32,200 nucleotides of DNA from an uncultured bacterium (GTDB lineage: Bacteria > CAYJRR01). The position numbers and the translations under genes were made by a program. Location: contig CAYJRR010000046.1 of assembly GCA_964372275.1 (NCBI GenBank), forward strand, positions 1 through 32,200. Reading direction: 5' to 3'. This document shows positions 2,209 to 28,908 of this stretch, piece after piece. Under the pieces are notes generated by a model that searched no databases, had not been told where the DNA came from, and saw nothing but the letters and a program-made list of their open reading frames with translations. Position 1 is the first letter of the stretch. Each line of letters begins with the position of its first letter.

Positions 2209-2966
2209 GCGGCGCGAGCCCGAACGCGTCCCGGATCGTGCGGATCCTCGCGGCGCTCGCCATCGCGGGGCTGCTCTTCTACGTGCTGCGCGTCCTCCCG
2301 GTCCGGGACCTGCTCGAGCGGTTCCTCGCCTGGATCCAGGAGCTGGGCCCGACGGGGGTGGTCGTCTTCGTCCTCGGCTACGCCATCGCGGCGTTGCTGC
2401 TTCCGGCGTCGTTGCTCACGCTCGGCGCCGGCGCGGCGTTCGGTCCGGTCGTGGGGACGGCGGCCGTCTCGGTGGGGAGCACCACCACCGCGTGCCTCGC
2501 ATTCCTGATCGGCCGTCGATTCGCGCGCCGCTTCGTCGAGGCGAAGATGGCCTCGTTCCCCAAGTTCCAGGCCGTCGATCGCGCGGTCGCGGGCCAGGGG
2601 TTCAAGATCGTGCTGCTGACGCGGCTGTCGCCGGCGTTTCCGTTCACCTGGATGAACTACGCCTACGGACTGACCCAGGTCCGATTCCGCGACTACGCGC
2701 TCGCGTCGTGGCTCGGGATGCTCCCCGGCACCGCGATGTACGTCTACTTCGGGCACGCCGGGAAGCTGGCGTTGCAGGCCGCGTCCGGCGGGACGGCGGC
2801 GACCGGCGGCAACGCCAAGCTCGTGATGCAGATCATCGCGGGTCTGGCCACCGTCGCGGTGACGATCGTCGTCACCCGAGTCGCGCGCAAAGCGCTGGCG
2901 GAGGCCGTGCCGGGCGCGGCCGCGCCCGCCGGCGGCGCGCCGGCGAATCCGCAGCCGACCGCCTGA
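2205..2966 (+). CDS. TVP38/TMEM64 (VTT/DedA superfamily) membrane protein
   Basis: GTGA overlap with the DUF547 stop. Motifs LLPASLLTLGAGAAFG and LLTRLSPAFPF..MNYAYGLT..SWLGMLPGT; multiple TM segments. Confidence 0.9.
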   Translation: MSGASPNASRIVRILAALAIAGLLFYVLRVLPVRDLLERFLAWIQELGPTGVVVFVLGYAIAALLLPASLLTLGAGAAFGPVVGTAAVSVGSTTTACLAFLIGRRFARRFVEAKMASFPKFQAVDRAVAGQGFKIVLLTRLSPAFPFTWMNYAYGLTQVRFRDYALASWLGMLPGTAMYVYFGHAGKLALQAASGGTAATGGNAKLVMQIIAGLATVAVTIVVTRVARKALAEAVPGAAAPAGGAPANPQPTA

Positions 2967-2968
2967 TC

Positions 2969-3586
2969 CTAGTAGTACCGCTGGACGCCGATCACCTTTC
3001 CCTGGATCTGAAGCTCCTTGCCGGCGACCGGGATCGGCTTCAATCGTGCGTTCTCGGGGACGAGCAGCACCTTGCCGGCCGCGCGGTGAAGGCGCTTGAC
3101 GGTCGATTCGCCGTCGAGAAGCGCCACCACGATCTCGCCGTGTCCGGCCGAGCGCTGGGCGCGCGCGATCACGTAGTCGCCGTCGAGGATGCCGGCGTCG
3201 ATCATGCTGTCGCCGGTGACGCGCAGCGCGAACAGCGCGGGCTCGCCGACGGCCCGCGAGCGATCGGACGGGAAGGGGAGGGCGCCGAGCGGGAGCTGGC
3301 TCGCGTCCCGGGGCGAACCGGCGGCGATCTGACCGAGAACCGGCACGTTCAACGACGACGGGCGCGCCGCGCCGGGGCTCGCCAGGCGAAGGCCCCGCGC
3401 GATCCCCGGCCGGTGCTCGAGGTGGCCTTTCCGAACCAACGCCGCGACGTGGTCCTGCGCGGCGCGCGTCGACTTGTAACCGAACTGCGCCGCAATCGCG
3501 CGGAAGGTGGGGGGCGCGCCGTTCTCCTGGATCTCGCGCGCGACGAACCGGAGAACCTTGGCTTGGGCGTCGGTCAGCTCGTCCAT
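2969..3586 (-). CDS. lexA: SOS transcriptional repressor LexA
   Basis: N-terminal LTDAQ..PPTFRAIA..FG winged helix, Ala-Gly cleavage site (IAAG), GDSM catalytic Ser and TVKR Lys; 205 aa. Confidence 0.95.
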   Translation of the reverse strand: MDELTDAQAKVLRFVAREIQENGAPPTFRAIAAQFGYKSTRAAQDHVAALVRKGHLEHRPGIARGLRLASPGAARPSSLNVPVLGQIAAGSPRDASQLPLGALPFPSDRSRAVGEPALFALRVTGDSMIDAGILDGDYVIARAQRSAGHGEIVVALLDGESTVKRLHRAAGKVLLVPENARLKPIPVAGKELQIQGKVIGVQRYY

Positions 3587-20167: not shown

Positions 20168-21147
20168 GCGGGTCGTCCCGCGTGGACCGCGGCGAGGATC
20201 TCGGCGCCGCCGCGTGCGAGGAGCTCCTCGGCGAGCGAGCGACCGAGCGCCGTCGGCGCGTCGACCGGGCCGGATCGCGAGCCGCGCACGATCGCGGCCG
20301 CCGAGTCGCGCGCCTCGGCCGCGGACACCGGTGCGCCGGCGCCGTTCCACGGGGCGGCGATCAACGCGTCGAGCCGGAGGACGGCGCCGTCGACGCGCGC
20401 GTGCGCCGCGACCGGGAGTTGGCATCCGCCGTTGAGCGTCGCGAGGAAGCCTCGCTCGGCTTCGACGGCGGCGCGCGTCGGCGGATGGTCCATCGCCGCC
20501 GCGATCCTCCTCGCCAGAGGGTCGTCGGCGCGCGTCTCGACCGCCATCGCGCCCGGGCCGACCGCCGGCAGCATCGGTTCCAGGTCCAGGATCTCGCTCG
20601 CCCGCCCCGCCAACCCCATCCGCTTCAGACCCGCCAGCGCCAGCACGATTCCGTCGTAGCGCCCCTCGTCGAGCTTGCGCACGCGGGTGTCGACGTTTCC
20701 GCGCAGGTCGATCAGCGCCACGTCGGGCCGGCGAGACCGGACCTGCGCCATCCGGCGGAGGCTCGAGGTGCCGACCCGCGCGCCGCGAGGGAGGCCGGCG
20801 AGACCCGATCCGTCCCGGGTGAGGAAGGCATCGCGCGGATCCTCCCGCTCGAGGAACGCGGCGAGTCGCAGCCCGTCGGTTTCGACCGACGGCAGGTCCT
20901 TGGCGCTGTGCACGGCGATCGAGACCCGGCCGTCGAGCAGCGCCTCCTCGATCTCCTTGACGAACAGCCCCTTCCCGCCGGCCGCGCTGCCGATCTCCGG
21001 GAGCGGGCGGGAGCTCATGTCGCCGGCGGTGGCGATGATCGAAAGCTGGATCTCGATTCCGAGCGCGCGTTCGAGGCGCTCCTTCACGTGGTTCGCCTGC
21101 CACCTCGCCAACGCGCTCCCGCGGGTGCCGATCCGGACGCTAGGCAC
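20164..21147 (-). CDS. hemC: Hydroxymethylbilane synthase
   Basis: RIGTRGSALARWQ, GKGLFVKEIE, VHSAKD, GTSSLRR, RGNVDTR, GGC cofactor Cys; start GTG 21147. Confidence 0.96.
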   Translation of the reverse strand: MPSVRIGTRGSALARWQANHVKERLERALGIEIQLSIIATAGDMSSRPLPEIGSAAGGKGLFVKEIEEALLDGRVSIAVHSAKDLPSVETDGLRLAAFLEREDPRDAFLTRDGSGLAGLPRGARVGTSSLRRMAQVRSRRPDVALIDLRGNVDTRVRKLDEGRYDGIVLALAGLKRMGLAGRASEILDLEPMLPAVGPGAMAVETRADDPLARRIAAAMDHPPTRAAVEAERGFLATLNGGCQLPVAAHARVDGAVLRLDALIAAPWNGAGAPVSAAEARDSAAAIVRGSRSGPVDAPTALGRSLAEELLARGGAEILAAVHAGRPA

Positions 21148-22453
21148 CGCCTTCGCCCTCTTTCGGTGGGTCGTCGTCGATCTCGAGCATCCCCGGAACT
21201 TCGTCAACGGTACCCAGCGCGAAGGCCTCCAGGAGGGTCTCGGCGTCGAGCGCGCCCCGCTTCAGCGCCTGGATCGGCTCGTGCGCGATCTTCGCCGTCA
21301 GCTGCTGGGTCAGGCGCTCGACGGCGTCGCGTTGCACCGCGTCGAGTCCGCGCAGGCCCCCCGCCGCCCGGGCCAGCTCCGACTTGCGCAGCGCTTCGAG
21401 GCGGGCGGTGAACAGACCGATGGCGGGTCCCAGCTCGACCTGGCCGATCACCCCGACGAACGCCGCCGCCTCCTCCTCGACGATCGCCTCGGCCTTGGCC
21501 GACTCCCGCTTCCGCTCGGCGAGGTTGGCGTCGACCACGCCCCGCAGGTCGTCGACGCCGTAGAGGTAGACGTCGGCCAACTCGTTCACCGCCGGTTCGA
21601 CCGCGCGCGGCACCGCGATGTCGACCACGAAGGTCGGCCGGTGGCGCCGGGCCCGGCTCGCCTCCGCCATCATCGACCGGGTGATGACGTGTCCCTTGGC
21701 CGCCGCGGCGCAGATGACGACGTCGGCGGCCGCCAGCCAGCTACCGAGCTTTTCGAACTGCACCGGCGTGCCGTCGAAACGCTGCGCCAGCTCGACGGCG
21801 CGGTCGTAGGTCCGGTTCGCCACCAGGATCTCGGCGGCGCCGTTCTTCTGCAGGTGACGCGCGGCGAGCTCCCCCATCTCGCCGGCGCCGACCAGCAGAA
21901 CCGTCTTTCCGGAGAGCTCGCCGAAGATCTTCCGCGCCAGCTCCACGGCCGCGTAGGAGACCGACACGGCGTGCGCCGCAATCCCCGTCTCCGAGCGGAC
22001 GCGCTTGGCCACCGAGAACGCCTTGTGCAGCACCCGGTTGAGGATCCCGCCGGCGGCCCGCACCTCGAGGGCCGTCTGGTAGGCCTCCTTGATCTGGCCC
22101 AGGATCTGCGGCTCGCCGATCACCAGCGAATCGAGCGAACTCGCCACCCGGAAGACGTGTCGCAACGCCGCCTCGCCGGATCGCTCGTAGAGGTGACGCT
22201 CGAGTTCGGCGGGGCTGACACCGTGCGTCCGGGCGAGGAACTCGCGCAGCGACGACAGCGTGGCGGTCGGGTCGGCCGACGCGGCGTAGATCTCCACCCG
22301 GTTGCAGGTGGACAGGATCATCCCCTCGGGGACGCCGGCAAGCCGCGTCAGGCCGGCGAGACACTCCGGGAGACCGTCGGCCGGGAACGCGACCCGTTCC
22401 CGCACCTCGATCGGCGCGGAGTCGTGGTTCAAGCCCAGGACGACGATCTCCAT
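21140..22453 (-). CDS. hemA: Glutamyl-tRNA reductase
   Basis: GLNH..AP..VRE, STCNRVE (catalytic Cys), SLDSLVIGEPQILGQ, GAGEM, NRT, DIAVPR; ATG 22453 in a TGATG overlap. Confidence 0.97.
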   Translation of the reverse strand: MEIVVLGLNHDSAPIEVRERVAFPADGLPECLAGLTRLAGVPEGMILSTCNRVEIYAASADPTATLSSLREFLARTHGVSPAELERHLYERSGEAALRHVFRVASSLDSLVIGEPQILGQIKEAYQTALEVRAAGGILNRVLHKAFSVAKRVRSETGIAAHAVSVSYAAVELARKIFGELSGKTVLLVGAGEMGELAARHLQKNGAAEILVANRTYDRAVELAQRFDGTPVQFEKLGSWLAAADVVICAAAAKGHVITRSMMAEASRARRHRPTFVVDIAVPRAVEPAVNELADVYLYGVDDLRGVVDANLAERKRESAKAEAIVEEEAAAFVGVIGQVELGPAIGLFTARLEALRKSELARAAGGLRGLDAVQRDAVERLTQQLTAKIAHEPIQALKRGALDAETLLEAFALGTVDEVPGMLEIDDDPPKEGEGGA

Positions 22454-23265
22454 CAGCCGAAGAAGTGGACGCGGGTGGAGAGGCTGATCCCGACGATCGA
22501 GACCAGGAGCGCGGCGAAGCCGACGACGGAGAAGACCGCCGACTTCCGGCCACGCCAACCGGCGAACAGGTGCGATTGGACGGCGTAGGCGTACCAGAGC
22601 CAGAGGGCCGAGGTGAGGAGCACCAGAGGGTCCTCCCAAACGCGTTCGCCGGCCGTCGGCTTCACCGTCACCCAGGCCGCGCCGAGGAACAGGCCGATCG
22701 AGAGTAGGACGAACCCGGCGGCGGTGGCGAACCGGTTCAGCCGGTCGAGCGCTTCGAGCGACGGGAGGCGGCGGAACAGGCCGCCGAGCCGGCGGGACTT
22801 GAGGAACCGCTCCTGGATCAGGTAGATCGCCGCGAGGCAGAAGCTGACCGAGAAGGCGGCGTAGCCCAGGAGCAGCGACACCAGGTGGGCGGTCAACCAC
22901 CAGGTCGGCAGCGACCGCGAGGGGGCCGGAGACCCGGGCGCCAGCTCGGCGAGGACGGCGAAGACGGTCGCCACCGGCGCCACGAACGCGCCGACCACGG
23001 TGAGGCGCGAGCGAAGCAGCACGGCGAGGAAGATTCCGACGATCCCCCAGGCGATGAGCGAGAGGAGCAGCGCCGCGCTGCCGAAGGAGATGCCGCTTCC
23101 GAACGCCTGGACGGCGAAGCAGACGGTGTGCCCCGCGAAGCCGATCGCCAGGATCGACGTCGCGATCGCCCCGAGCCTCGGCGACGGACGCAGGAGGAAG
23201 GCGACGTAGGCGAGGGCCGCCGCCGCGTAGAACAGCCAGCCGCCGGAGTGGAGAAGCGCGGTCAA
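22453..23265 (-). CDS. Cytochrome c assembly protein (CcsA/HemX-like)
   Basis: About 8 TM helices, conserved His, YLIQER.LK, RLPSLEALD, GA.W...W.DP; directly upstream of hemA; TTG start after GGAGG. Confidence 0.88.
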   Translation of the reverse strand: MTALLHSGGWLFYAAAALAYVAFLLRPSPRLGAIATSILAIGFAGHTVCFAVQAFGSGISFGSAALLLSLIAWGIVGIFLAVLLRSRLTVVGAFVAPVATVFAVLAELAPGSPAPSRSLPTWWLTAHLVSLLLGYAAFSVSFCLAAIYLIQERFLKSRRLGGLFRRLPSLEALDRLNRFATAAGFVLLSIGLFLGAAWVTVKPTAGERVWEDPLVLLTSALWLWYAYAVQSHLFAGWRGRKSAVFSVVGFAALLVSIVGISLSTRVHFFG

Positions 23266-23276
23266 GGGCCTCCAGA

Positions 23277-23305
23277 AGGGTAGGCGACGGCCCGCTCACG
23301 GGCAA
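23277..23305 (-). promoter_or_regulatory. Putative sigma70-type promoter of the ccsA-hemA-hemC-hemD operon
   Basis: Minus strand TTGCCC-N17-TACCCT, followed by GGAGG and the TTG start. Confidence 0.5.
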
Positions 23306-23316
23306 GACCCGGAGCG

Positions 23317-24024
23317 CTAGTCGAACCGGGCGAAGGCGACGAACAGTTCGCCGGCGAGGGTCGGCTCGCCGCTTCGTTCGCGGCGACGGAACGGACCGTT
23401 CCGCGCCGCGTCCGACGGGTTCCGCAGGTCCATCGGATCGCGCCGGACGGCCCCCCCCATCCAATGAAGGAGCCGGACCTGGCCGTCGGGTTCGACCGTT
23501 TCGACGATCGCGACGTGCGTGATGCGGCCGGTGATCTCGCCCGACGTGTCGCGAAAGAAGGCGAGGTCGCCGACGGCGGGCGCGAGCCGGTCGACGACGC
23601 GCCGCGTGGCGCGGGCCCAGGCGAGGAGCATCCCCGAGACGGTCGGCTGCGTCCGGTGCTCGGGCGGGACGACGAGCGGGCGGCCGGCCGCTTCGAACCC
23701 GGCGCCGACGAATCCGGAGCAGTCGCGGCGGGCGTGTGGGGGGAGCGATCCCGCGGCGACCATCGCCAACATGTGCGCGACCGCCTGCCGCCCGCGGCGG
23801 CTCCCGTGCGCGAGCGGGCTCGCCGACGCCGGCCCGATGGAGGGGATGCCCGGAACCGCCGGCGGATCGAGAGCGTCAGGCGCCGTCGTCGGCACCGTGG
23901 CCGGGGGGCGCGCATCCCGGTCGACGGCGCGTCGCGCGGCGCAGCCCGCGATCGCGGTCAGGCCGGCGGCGGCGAGCGCCGCCGCGACCGGTCGTACGGA
24001 GGGTCGACGGGCCGTGCGTCCCAC
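23317..24024 (-). CDS. NlpC/P60 (CHAP-like) cell-wall peptidase lipoprotein
   Basis: Lipobox IAGC; DCSGFV catalytic Cys, GDLAFF, THVAIV His. Confidence 0.85.
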   Translation of the reverse strand: MGRTARRPSVRPVAAALAAAGLTAIAGCAARRAVDRDARPPATVPTTAPDALDPPAVPGIPSIGPASASPLAHGSRRGRQAVAHMLAMVAAGSLPPHARRDCSGFVGAGFEAAGRPLVVPPEHRTQPTVSGMLLAWARATRRVVDRLAPAVGDLAFFRDTSGEITGRITHVAIVETVEPDGQVRLLHWMGGAVRRDPMDLRNPSDAARNGPFRRRERSGEPTLAGELFVAFARFD

Positions 24025-24078
24025 TCGCCGGCGAGGATACCGCGGCGATCCCCGTGCCCCGTGTGACGGCGCGCGGGC

Positions 24079-24131
24079 AAAAAAAACGACCCGGATCCAG
24101 AGTGGGGCACATCACTCTGCATCCGAGTCGT
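24079..24131 (-). terminator. Rho-independent terminator
   Basis: ACGACTCGGATGCAGAGTG-ATGTGCCC-CACTCTGGATCCGGGTCGT, ending in a run of 8 T. Confidence 0.8.
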
Positions 24132-24183
24132 GTTTGCAAGTTTCCCCGGACTGGGAACGACTCCCAACCGGGTCTCGCAATGG
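24079..24183 (-). ncRNA. Candidate sigma54-dependent small RNA (~105 nt)
   Basis: Sigma54 promoter directly upstream; hairpin 24134-24180; terminator hairpin 24086-24131 ending in a T8 run; G-U pairs form only on the minus strand; no credible ORF. Confidence 0.65.
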
Positions 24184-24193
24184 CCTTCCTATC

Positions 24194-24210
24194 AGCAACC
24201 CGGATGCCAG
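24194..24210 (-). promoter_or_regulatory. Sigma54 (-24/-12) promoter
   Basis: Minus strand CTGGCAT-CCGGG-TTGCT, one mismatch to YTGGCAC-N5-TTGCW. Confidence 0.75.
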
Positions 24211-24371
24211 CACGAATCCTTTGTTCACAAGGAGTTCCGCGTTTTCGAGGCACGCGATTCGGCCGGCTATGACAGCGATGTCGTAGGCCCGATTTCGACG
24301 ATCCGGGCCCGATCCGTGGTATGCGTGCGCTGGGGTTCGGGGAGTCCCCGCCGAGCCCGAAGGGCGTAACG

Positions 24372-24797
24372 ATGGCCGAGCGGATCCAGGCATTGACGGC
24401 ACGCGTCGAGTTCTTCGACGGGAAGGAGGTCTTCACCCCCGACCTCCCCGGCCTGGTGTCGCTGCTGGCGAAGGCCTCCGACGACCATGTCACCGTCAAG
24501 GTGATCGAGGTCCTCGGGAAGGGGAACGACGGCACGGAGTACCGGGTACTGCTCGAGCCGGTCGGCGTGTTCAAGGAGAAGGCGCCGATCGGCTTCCACA
24601 ACCTGCTCTTCGACCGCGCGCTCGGAGACATCCTGATCCGCGCCGGCATCGCCACCCCCGAGCAGATCCAGCGCGCGCTCGCCGAGCAGAACGCCTCGGC
24701 GGTGAAGGAGCGCCTGGGCGAGGTGCTCGTCCGGCTCGGCATCGCGACCCCGCAGCAGGTCCGCGAGGCCCTCCTCCGCCAGCTCGGCGGCGTCTGA
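24372..24797 (+). CDS. Small protein with a C-terminal tandem MshEN (c-di-GMP-binding type) motif
   Basis: RALGDILIRAGIATPEQIQRALAEQ and RLGEVLVRLGIATPQQVREALLRQ match the MshEN repeat; unknown ~80-aa N-terminal domain; ATG 24372 after AAGGG. Confidence 0.8.
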   Translation: MAERIQALTARVEFFDGKEVFTPDLPGLVSLLAKASDDHVTVKVIEVLGKGNDGTEYRVLLEPVGVFKEKAPIGFHNLLFDRALGDILIRAGIATPEQIQRALAEQNASAVKERLGEVLVRLGIATPQQVREALLRQLGGV

Positions 24798-26228
24798 CTA
24801 CTTGAAGTCCTCTTTTCGGATCCGGTATTGCCGCATCTTCTCGAAGAAGCCGCGGCGGCTGATACCGGCGTGCTGGTAGGACTTCTTGATGTTGCCGCGG
24901 TACTCGTGGAGCAGGCGGGTGATGTACTCGGCCTCCAGCCGCTCGGTGAGCTGGTTGGTCAGCTCTTTCAGCGGCACGGCGATGTCGACCACCGTCGGCA
25001 CCGGGATCGGCGCGCTGCCGGCGGAGGAGAGCAGCGCGGCGCGGCCGTCGTTCTCCGGAAGGTCGACCTCCTCGATCGTCCGGTCCCGCGAGAGGATTAG
25101 CGCCCGCTCGACGAAGTTCTCCAGCTCGCGCACGTTACCGGGCCAGTGGTAGCGGGCCATCTTCGCCAGCGCGCCGTCGGAGAAGCCGACGACGTTCGAG
25201 TTCGCCTTTCCGCGATACTTCGCCACGAAGTGCTCGACCAGGAGCGGCAGGTCCTCGATGCGGTCGCGCAGCGCCGGGAGGTCGATCGGGACGACGTTGA
25301 CCCGGTAGAACAGGTCTTCGCGGAACGTCCCCTGGCGGACCATCTTCTCCAGGTCGCGGTTGGTCGCGAGCACGATCCGGATGTCGACGTCGACGGGCAT
25401 GTTCCCGCCCACGCGGCGGATCTGCCGCTCCTGCAGGACCCGCAACAGCTTGGCCTGCATCGACAGCGGCACCTCGCCGATCTCGTCGAGGAAGATCGTC
25501 CCGCCGTGCGCCTCCTCGAAGCGCCCCGCCTTGCGCTTGATTGCGCCGGTGAACGCCCCCTTCTCGTGGCCGAACAGTTCGCTCTCCAGGAGCGATTCCG
25601 GGATGGCGGCGCAGTTGACCGAGACGAACGGCTTCTCGACGCGCGGCGAGACCTCGTGCAGCGCGCGCGCCACCAGCTCCTTCCCGGTTCCGGTCTCCCC
25701 CAGCACCATCACCGTCGCGTCGCTGGGGGCGATGCTGTTGATCAGGGAGAAGACCTTCTTCATCCGCGGGGTGAGACCGATGATCCCGTGGAAGCGGCCC
25801 GATTCGACCATCTGCCCTCGAAGCCGCGAGATCTCCTGCTCGCGCATCCGTCGCTCGATCACCCGCTTCGCGCGCAGGATCAGCTCGGCCGGGTCGAACG
25901 GGCGGAGGATGAAGTCGGCGGCCCCGTCGCGCATCGCCTTGAGCGCGAGGTCGAGCATCCCGCGCTCGGCGACCCCGAGGATGTCGAGGTTGGGCGCCGA
26001 CTCACGCAGCGTCGGAACGGCCCCGGCGAGCGCGCGTTCCATCGCCATGAGCAGCAGCGCGCACGTCTTGAGCGTGGGATGGGTCAGCGCCTCTTCGACC
26101 GTGGCGACCGCCTCGGTGGTGAACCCTTCGATCTGCAGGACGTTCTTCAGGTACTCGCGCTTGGGCCGGTCGGGCTCGATCACCAGGATCGGTCGGTCGA
26201 TGCGAATCGGGGTCCCGGAGAAGGGCAC
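24798..26228 (-). CDS. Sigma54-dependent enhancer-binding protein with a degenerate (pseudo) receiver domain
   Basis: GETGTGKE, ESELFGHEKGAFTGA, FLDEIGE, FREDLFYR, WPGNVREL, C-terminal Fis-like HTH; N-terminal REC fold lacks canonical residues. Confidence 0.93.
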   Translation of the reverse strand: MPFSGTPIRIDRPILVIEPDRPKREYLKNVLQIEGFTTEAVATVEEALTHPTLKTCALLLMAMERALAGAVPTLRESAPNLDILGVAERGMLDLALKAMRDGAADFILRPFDPAELILRAKRVIERRMREQEISRLRGQMVESGRFHGIIGLTPRMKKVFSLINSIAPSDATVMVLGETGTGKELVARALHEVSPRVEKPFVSVNCAAIPESLLESELFGHEKGAFTGAIKRKAGRFEEAHGGTIFLDEIGEVPLSMQAKLLRVLQERQIRRVGGNMPVDVDIRIVLATNRDLEKMVRQGTFREDLFYRVNVVPIDLPALRDRIEDLPLLVEHFVAKYRGKANSNVVGFSDGALAKMARYHWPGNVRELENFVERALILSRDRTIEEVDLPENDGRAALLSSAGSAPIPVPTVVDIAVPLKELTNQLTERLEAEYITRLLHEYRGNIKKSYQHAGISRRGFFEKMRQYRIRKEDFK

Positions 26229-26264: not shown

Positions 26265-26854
26265 GGAAAATGGGCAGAAAAAAGCACATCGACGATTCGC
26301 TCCCGGCGGAGACGTTCCGGTGATTGCCCACCGGCCCTCGCCTGTACGACGGCCAGCGCCGCGCCGAGCGTCTGCAGGTCGAGGACGTCCCCCGGATCGA
26401 GGTCGGCGAGCGCGACGTCGACGAAATTGAGTTCGCACACCGCGAGCGTGCCGCCGGCGTCCGCCGCACCGGACGGACGATCGAGGTCGGGCCCGTCGGA
26501 AAGGATCGGCAGCCGCGCGTCGCCCGGGAGCCGCATCGGCAGTCCGTGCGTCCGGCAGACGATGGGGCGGACGTCGTAGATCCCGCAGGTGCCGTCGGCG
26601 GCGAGCGCGGGGCAGGGACCGGGGCGGGTGCCGACCTCGGCGGCCCGTGCGGCGAGCGCCGCGCGTTCCTCCGGGGAGAGCGCCGCCAGGCCCTCGCGGA
26701 TCGCCTGGGCCTCCACCGCCGTGACCGAGAGTGAATGCCGGCAGCAGTCGCTGCATCCGGCGCGGCAGGCGAACCGCTCCGGGTGCGCCGCGCGCACGCG
26801 GGCGAAGAAGGCGTCGACCTTGGTCACCAGGGTGCGGTATTCGCGGAGATCCAT
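26261..26854 (-). CDS. YkgJ-family cysteine cluster (CxxxCxxCC) protein
   Basis: CRAGCSDCC, CPAL..GTCGIYDVRPIVCRTHGLP, CELNF. Confidence 0.88.
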   Translation of the reverse strand: MDLREYRTLVTKVDAFFARVRAAHPERFACRAGCSDCCRHSLSVTAVEAQAIREGLAALSPEERAALAARAAEVGTRPGPCPALAADGTCGIYDVRPIVCRTHGLPMRLPGDARLPILSDGPDLDRPSGAADAGGTLAVCELNFVDVALADLDPGDVLDLQTLGAALAVVQARAGGQSPERLRRERIVDVLFSAHFP

Positions 26855-26946
26855 GGGGTCTGTCGGGGTCGATCCTATTGAATCCGCTCCGGTCAAGACC
26901 ATCCTACTTTCGAGGAGGTCCTTTCGCTCCGGGAGGGGCGGCGTCG

Positions 26947-28908
<1,962 letters not shown>

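Follow-up and report, generated by a model that had tools for sequence, protein, structure and literature searches.

Small RNAs transcribed from sigma-54-dependent promoters are few but influential, being known from quorum sensing in Vibrio, development in Myxococcus and carbon control in Pseudomonas. Qrr with LuxO in Vibrio, GlmY with GlrR, and CrcZ with CbrB combine a sigma-54 promoter with a short terminated sRNA encoded beside the activator gene. Qrr, GlmY and CrcZ are Hfq- or protein-sequestering sRNAs of gammaproteobacteria; Myxococcus is not known to have Hfq. Structured RNAs are also found ahead of genes for cell-wall enzymes: the ydaO/c-di-AMP riboswitch precedes NlpC/P60-type genes, and leaders of cell-wall hydrolase genes are known.

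In Myxococcus xanthus and its relatives, Pxr is an RNA of about 108 nt with multiple stem-loops and apparently a sigma-54 promoter, encoded just downstream of nla19, the gene of a sigma-54-dependent response regulator (as described in sections of PMC5568312). In Desulfovibrio vulgaris Hildenborough, four sigma-54-dependent ncRNAs lie beside genes of enhancer-binding proteins (EBPs). The regulome includes EBPs with an ncRNA as the sole predicted target; two of these EBP genes are directly followed by the ncRNA, whereas in the remaining cases the ncRNA precedes a different gene (Kazakov et al., 2015; portions of PMC4641369).

Here we describe a candidate unit of this type in the window, that is, the whole 32.2-kb stretch of DNA that was analysed. 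As contig C46, the window belongs to a 4.6-Mb metagenome-assembled genome (G000; 70% GC, 225 contigs, completeness 94.6%), which is alone in its phylum according to genome search. The unit occupies the gap between the GTG start codon of an NlpC/P60 gene (24024) and the ATG of a gene encoding a small MshEN-like protein (24372), and the length of this gap, given as 347 bp in the preliminary description, is confirmed. The features of the locus are as follows, L087 being a related metagenome contig.

ends about 21143, minus strand: hemA (Pfam search; comparison with L087)
22456-23295, minus strand: ccsA-like cytochrome c assembly gene (Pfam Cytochrom_C_asm; matches L087 635-1459)
23317-24024, minus strand: NlpC/P60-CHAP lipoprotein gene (Pfam CHAP, 1.3e-6; NLPC_P60, 1.7e-4)
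24079-24183, minus strand: predicted non-coding RNA, ~104 nt, consisting of hairpin 1, linker, terminator hairpin and U-tract
24079-24086, minus strand: T8 tract of the terminator (sequence)
24086-24131, minus strand: terminator hairpin, 18 pairs, 8-nt C-rich loop (fold)
24134-24180, minus strand: hairpin 1, 47 nt, three helical segments (fold)
24194-24210, minus strand: predicted sigma-54 (-24/-12) promoter CTGGCATCCGGGTTGCT, with the predicted transcription start near 24183
24271-24282, no strand assigned: candidate upstream activator site, palindrome GACAT-N2-(C/A)TGTC (ungapped alignment of the window and L087)
24372-24797, plus strand: gene of the small MshEN-like protein, 142 aa (motif pair; frame backed by the GC3 profile)
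24798-26228, minus strand: gene of an NtrC-type sigma-54 activator with a receiver-like domain, AAA+ domain with GAFTGA, and HTH (Pfam Sigma54_activat, 6e-75)
26731-28908, plus strand: ftsH (Pfam search)

The profile of GC by codon position confirms the gene frames and gives no coding signal at about 24050-24350. On the strand of the RNA, 54 nt separate the U-tract from the start of the NlpC/P60 gene, whose translation shows a lipobox-type signal peptide. The MshEN-like gene points away from the RNA and converges with the activator gene; these two genes meet at abutting stop codons (24797/24798), with no terminator in between. The 774-aa open reading frame containing hemA (21140-23464, minus strand) is over-extended, as its GlutR domains begin at residue 343, and its upstream part overlaps the separate ccsA-like gene in another frame.

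At gathering thresholds, cmscan with Rfam 15 yields no matches in the window, in line with the earlier statement that the RNA belongs to no recognised family; with E up to 10, both RNA copies (from the window and from L087) give only chance-level matches (E of at least 0.08), and none of the Rfam 15 models of Qrr, GlmY/GlmZ, CrcZ, riboswitches and leaders matches. The Pxr model (RF01812) was considered and rejected: its best score in the genome, 17.6 bits compared to the gathering score of 80, falls at another locus, with no match at the RNA locus at E up to 10.

The resemblance to Pxr lies in the similar length, the multi-stem-loop fold, the apparent sigma-54 promoter, the activator gene close by and a host in which Hfq is not known (Myxococcus) or was not found (the studied genome). 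On the other hand, there is no match in sequence or structure, the studied RNA has two hairpins and Pxr three, and the studied RNA is separated from the activator gene by a convergent gene, with the NlpC/P60 gene next on the same strand. The EBP-linked ncRNAs of D. vulgaris, as presented in the cited portions of the regulome study, follow the same genomic logic in a different lineage, the likeness being one of gene arrangement and not of sequence; a difference is that the receiver domain of the activator at the studied locus lacks the acceptor Asp. With Qrr, GlmY and CrcZ the unit shares the sigma-54 promoter, the short terminated RNA and the nearby activator gene, but their Rfam models do not match it, and no Hfq has been found in its host. 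Finally, similar to ydaO-type leaders, it is a structured RNA with an intrinsic terminator directly upstream of an NlpC/P60 gene, but it has a sigma-54 promoter and neither an Rfam riboswitch match nor an antiterminator. The unit represents a new RNA family, with no match in Rfam, of a type already known from Pxr, Qrr and the Desulfovibrio EBP-linked ncRNAs. It adds such a family from an uncultured, poorly sampled lineage with no detected Hfq, and it overturns no principle.

Promoter, fold and terminator

The box TGGCATCCGGGTTGCT (24209-24194) has zero mismatches to the consensus TGGCAY-N5-TTGCW, its GG and GC elements standing at a distance of 10 nt in TGGCAC-N5-TTGCW, and is the sole exact site in the 32.2-kb window. 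The sigma-54 box reported in the preliminary description on the minus strand at 24210-24194 is therefore an exact match and stands where it had been placed. When one mismatch is allowed, the window contains three matches compared to 0.23 expected, a number reached in none of 100 shuffles. Genome-wide, 20 exact matches are found versus approximately four expected by our own arithmetic from base composition, and most of them sit a few dozen bases ahead of a start codon. The genome encodes RpoN (Sigma54_DBD, 216 bits, contig C168) and has 39 matches to the Sigma54_activat domain; Hfq was not found in a search of the same genome.

At many of the 20 exact boxes the next start codon is only 15-40 nt away, so that the leaders would be very short. 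A box at approximately 16525 of contig C85 (minus strand), CTGGCATCCGGATTGCT, coincides with the studied box in 16 of 17 positions and precedes, by about 28 nt, the gene of a lipoprotein that carries a papain-like Cys-peptidase motif; by our own reading of the sequence, it has no counterpart of the palindrome found near -93 at the studied promoter. One more sigma-54 box, in the related metagenome locus L086 (596-611, plus strand), is located before a gene of a Pro/Thr-rich lipoprotein co-directional with the MshEN-like gene, and the homologue of this lipoprotein gene in L087 has no recognisable sigma-54 box.

The 107-nt minus-strand RNA folds into two hairpins with -57.7 kcal/mol (z = -6.5), and none of 200 shuffled sequences folds as well. 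These are exactly the hairpins proposed from inspection of the sequence, namely, an imperfect one of 47 nt followed by a terminator hairpin. The plus strand folds more weakly by 11 kcal/mol (-46.6 kcal/mol), an asymmetry that fits the presence of G-U pairs on the minus strand only, as had been pointed out. The terminator had been described as a 19-bp stem ending in T8; the T8 tract is indeed present at 24086-24079, but the stem consists of 11 + 7 = 18 pairs around a single G/G mismatch.

Both in the window and in L087 the structure has the composition of an intrinsic terminator, that is, a G+C-rich stem-loop directly followed by a U-tract, and a simple terminator scanner lists neither of the two. 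Runs of seven or more T are rare in the genome, with 44 on both strands of 4.6 Mb; 20 of these 44 are preceded by a hairpin of -20 kcal/mol or better, the studied terminator ranking seventh (-30.7). About a dozen of the 44 runs are textbook intrinsic terminators. Again by our own arithmetic, chance would bring a box and a terminator of this quality together within 200 nt about 0.01 times per genome.

Conservation in a related metagenome contig

An alignment of the query and 18 relatives of the MshEN-like protein, with family members drawn from ENA, Logan, NCBI and JGI/IMG sources, led to four metagenome loci (JGI metagenome contigs L085-L088). Only L087 covers the RNA site; L085, L086 and L088 do not include the stretch ahead of the NlpC/P60 gene. 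L087 and the window are syntenic, with protein identity of 73% for hemA, 58% for the ccsA-like gene, 51% for NlpC/P60, 64% for the MshEN-like protein and 75% for the activator. One of its genes, at 2347-3051 (plus strand), encodes a protein rich in Cys that has several zinc-ribbon-like CxxC repeats; this gene lies between the RNA and the lipoprotein and MshEN-like genes and is absent from the window.

L087 also carries the unit formed by promoter, hairpins and terminator, immediately ahead of its NlpC/P60 gene and co-directional with it, as in the window. Its box is TGGCAT-N5-GTGCT, with spacing equal to that of the window box, and the RNA has the same fold and the same predicted length, with two hairpins and T7 (-52.8 kcal/mol, z = -5.7). 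The preliminary description had named lack of conservation of promoter plus structure in relatives as a ground for rejecting the RNA; both are conserved in the one relative covering the site, so that the unit recurs in 1/1 informative relatives.

Between the two genomes, 97 of 132 aligned columns are identical. Two blocks are invariant: 12 nt at the apex of hairpin 1 (24155-24166) and 24 nt at the apex of the terminator (24098-24121), comprising the apical stem and the 8-nt C-rich loop. Among the 36 pairs, five have changed on both sides with pairing kept, the lower terminator stem accounting for three, and four more have changed on one side through G-U, these counts being small and coming from two sequences with the structure derived from one of them, the window. 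Paired cells amount to 95.8%, and the three unpaired ones fall at the base of hairpin 1 and in an internal loop. In the control, where pairing partners were slid by 1-3 columns, 0-1 double changes and at most 51% paired cells are obtained. The compensatory changes thus support the RNA structure in a suggestive, not a statistical, manner, and the G-U pairs of both copies pair on the minus strand only.

The DNA identity of the RNA is 80.8% compared to 64-77% for the flanking genes, i.e. modestly above the neighbours. Of the 54-nt spacer that separates the U-tract from the start codon of NlpC/P60, just 16 nt align, and hence conservation ends at the terminator. A 1-nt indel between the window and L087 shifts the conserved blocks into different reading frames; as it breaks any common reading frame, the unit is non-coding.

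Beyond this pair, the covariance model R1 finds one copy in the source genome, the matches in the window and in L087 being expected by construction, and no match in L085, L086 and L088. In 80 unrelated activator loci it retrieves only a generic terminator (L009) with neither promoter nor hairpin 1, and a DNA search of 60 sampled genomes gives only a chance 22-nt match.

Free small RNA, leader and other readings

The match to the sigma-54 promoter, the fold, and the conservation of both with compensatory changes in a second genome are established computationally. Since the unit recurs in one related uncultured bacterium, it is probably real, and we consider it likely that the locus carries a genuine, conserved, sigma-54-driven terminated RNA unit. 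Judging from the sequences, there is roughly an even chance that this unit is the gene for a small non-coding RNA of ~104 nt acting as a regulator in trans; that action as a free trans-acting sRNA is its main role we would put at, or just short of, the same level.

In the proposed mechanism, RNA polymerase with sigma-54 would bind the -24/-12 box at 24209-24194, and an enhancer-binding protein, likeliest the neighbouring NtrC-type activator at the palindrome near -93, would open the promoter complex. Transcription would start near 24183, pass through the 47-nt hairpin and stop at the 18-bp hairpin with U8. The released RNA would then probably regulate in trans, using one or both of its invariant apices, namely, the C-rich terminator loop and the tip of hairpin 1, and presumably would act with no involvement of Hfq, which was not found in the genome. 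Transcription is likely to continue to some extent into the NlpC/P60 gene, and therefore the unit may also set the expression of this gene.

The free sRNA is favoured by the very strong terminator, by the lack of a conserved competing structure, and by the fact that the apical stem-loop of the terminator is the most conserved part. By analogy, the genomic logic, which resembles that of Pxr and nla19 and of the EBP-linked ncRNAs of D. vulgaris, would point in the same direction. A scan for target duplexes with the two invariant apices against 7,079 candidate start regions performs no better than shuffled queries, and hence no RNA target is proposed; duplex folding of the full-length RNA with the neighbouring 5' regions gives meaningless long duplexes only.

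A possible, if somewhat unlikely, alternative is that the sigma-54 promoter serves the NlpC/P60 gene and the hairpins are a cis attenuator in a terminator-gated 5' leader, with a protein, a ligand or a further RNA allowing passage through the terminator, and the ~104-nt RNA being mainly a by-product of premature termination. In both genomes the RNA has the orientation of the NlpC/P60 gene and ends 54-65 nt before it, and the two extra genes inserted on the other side in L087 did not part them. Moreover, the promoter scan finds no sigma-70-type promoter between the terminator and the NlpC/P60 start codon in either genome. The TATCCT element (24039-24034), previously proposed to be the gene's own promoter, is weak: it matches TATAAT in three of six positions, is unlisted by the promoter scan and is not conserved. 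The boxes at C85:16525 and L086:596 directly precede genes of secreted lipoproteins or hydrolases, which also agrees with a leader. Given the co-orientation at 54-65 nt and the lack of a detected sigma-70-type promoter, a role in cis fits equally well. Of the earlier claim of an independent RNA of ~105 nt, a discrete structured non-coding unit of ~104 nt stands, but, as no NlpC/P60 promoter is conserved or listed, the word "independent" is inseparable from a terminator-gated leader.

The terminator itself speaks against the leader. It is very strong (18 bp, U8), and its apical stem and loop are conserved in 24 of 24 nt, which is unusual for an expression platform. When the terminator 3' arm was withheld in folding, no conserved alternative pairing that could serve as an antiterminator was seen in the window and L087, which makes it more likely that termination is constitutive and a short RNA is set free, although antitermination mediated by a protein may be compatible with the lack of a shared antiterminator fold. 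In addition, no Rfam riboswitch or leader family matches, and the downstream spacer is not conserved. The free trans-acting sRNA and the terminator-gated leader are not mutually exclusive.

It is improbable that the box and the hairpins are unrelated, with the hairpins forming a terminator or insulator against stray minus-strand transcription and the box being silent or acting at the DNA level only. As the back-to-back activator and MshEN-like genes have no terminator between them, minus-strand read-through could indeed reach the site, but L087 keeps the box, the spacing and both hairpins despite three plus-strand genes (~2.2 kb) between the activator gene and the unit, and the sequences of hairpin 1 and of the terminator loop, needless for a mere terminator, are conserved. 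Least probable is a small protein gene or a palindromic protein-binding site in DNA instead of an RNA: the overlapping open reading frames of 69 aa (23958-24167 in the window) and 78 aa (2129-2365 in L087) are contradicted by the 1-nt indel, which places the conserved blocks in different frames, and by the absence of the GC3 signal at 24050-24350, while the G-U pairs and the strand asymmetry of 11 kcal/mol point to RNA.

Whether it acts as a free sRNA or as a leader, the unit is physically tied to the gene of a peptidoglycan hydrolase and comes with a predicted promoter, a candidate activator and a candidate input, that is, a c-di-GMP-type receptor encoded beside a phosphorylation-blind activator. 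If expressed, it would be a compact system for studying the RNA outputs of sigma-54 circuits outside Proteobacteria, and could tell if RNAs of this type operate in trans, in cis or in both ways.

The neighbouring activator and the MshEN-like protein

The nearby activator gene expected from the preliminary description is present: the gene of an NtrC-type sigma-54 activator lies upstream on the same strand at 0.6 kb from the RNA in the window, the distance in L087 being 2.2 kb. In both genomes the palindrome has its centre approximately 93.5 nt before the predicted start (24282-24271 in the window; 2351-2340 in L087). Sites of enhancer-binding proteins usually lie in this area, and we infer from the two sequences that the palindrome is a putative upstream activator site. 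The L087 copy of the palindrome shares bases with the start codon of the divergent zinc-ribbon gene, and therefore may be a coincidence. From its proximity and the palindrome shared by the two sequences, the neighbouring NtrC-type protein is the likeliest activator of the promoter.

The orthologues of the activator in L085-L088 are 71-80% identical. The family members compared (24798-26228 in the window, 4523-6010 in L087 and 462-1898 in L085, all on the minus strand) have a receiver domain with no phospho-acceptor Asp, this position being occupied by Ala or Gly in 3/3 of them, whereas three canonical regulators have Asp. In the same three proteins the acidic DD pair of the pseudo-receiver reads E-P-D, and GAFTGA is intact. 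A search of genome contigs with the activator yields nothing but NtrC-family proteins, spread over many phyla and 37-50% identical.

The MshEN-like protein contains two copies of a 24-residue motif of the c-di-GMP-binding type (compared to the motif definition given for MshEN in sections of PMC5013675). Copy 2 is near-perfect, copy 1 has Ala at the first Arg position, and the spacer is 7 residues, not 5. The protein has no Pfam match above threshold. In public protein collections it has 19 relatives with 61-72% identity, and the full-length family was not found in 400 domain-wide sampled genomes, 401 sampled Myxococcota and 10 genomes reached through loci.

The MshEN-like and activator genes are convergent in 5/5 loci (the window and L085-L088). 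This arrangement and the receiver with no acceptor Asp would fit an undescribed chain from c-di-GMP through the small, stand-alone MshEN-like receptor, the NtrC-type activator and sigma-54 to the RNA as its output; we regard this chain as unlikely but worth stating. If it existed, the RNA would couple the level of the second messenger to remodelling of the cell wall, and could do so either in trans or in the form of a novel type of terminator-gated NlpC/P60 leader. As judged from the sequences compared, the pairing of the activator with the MshEN-like protein appears a more unusual feature of the locus than the RNA unit.
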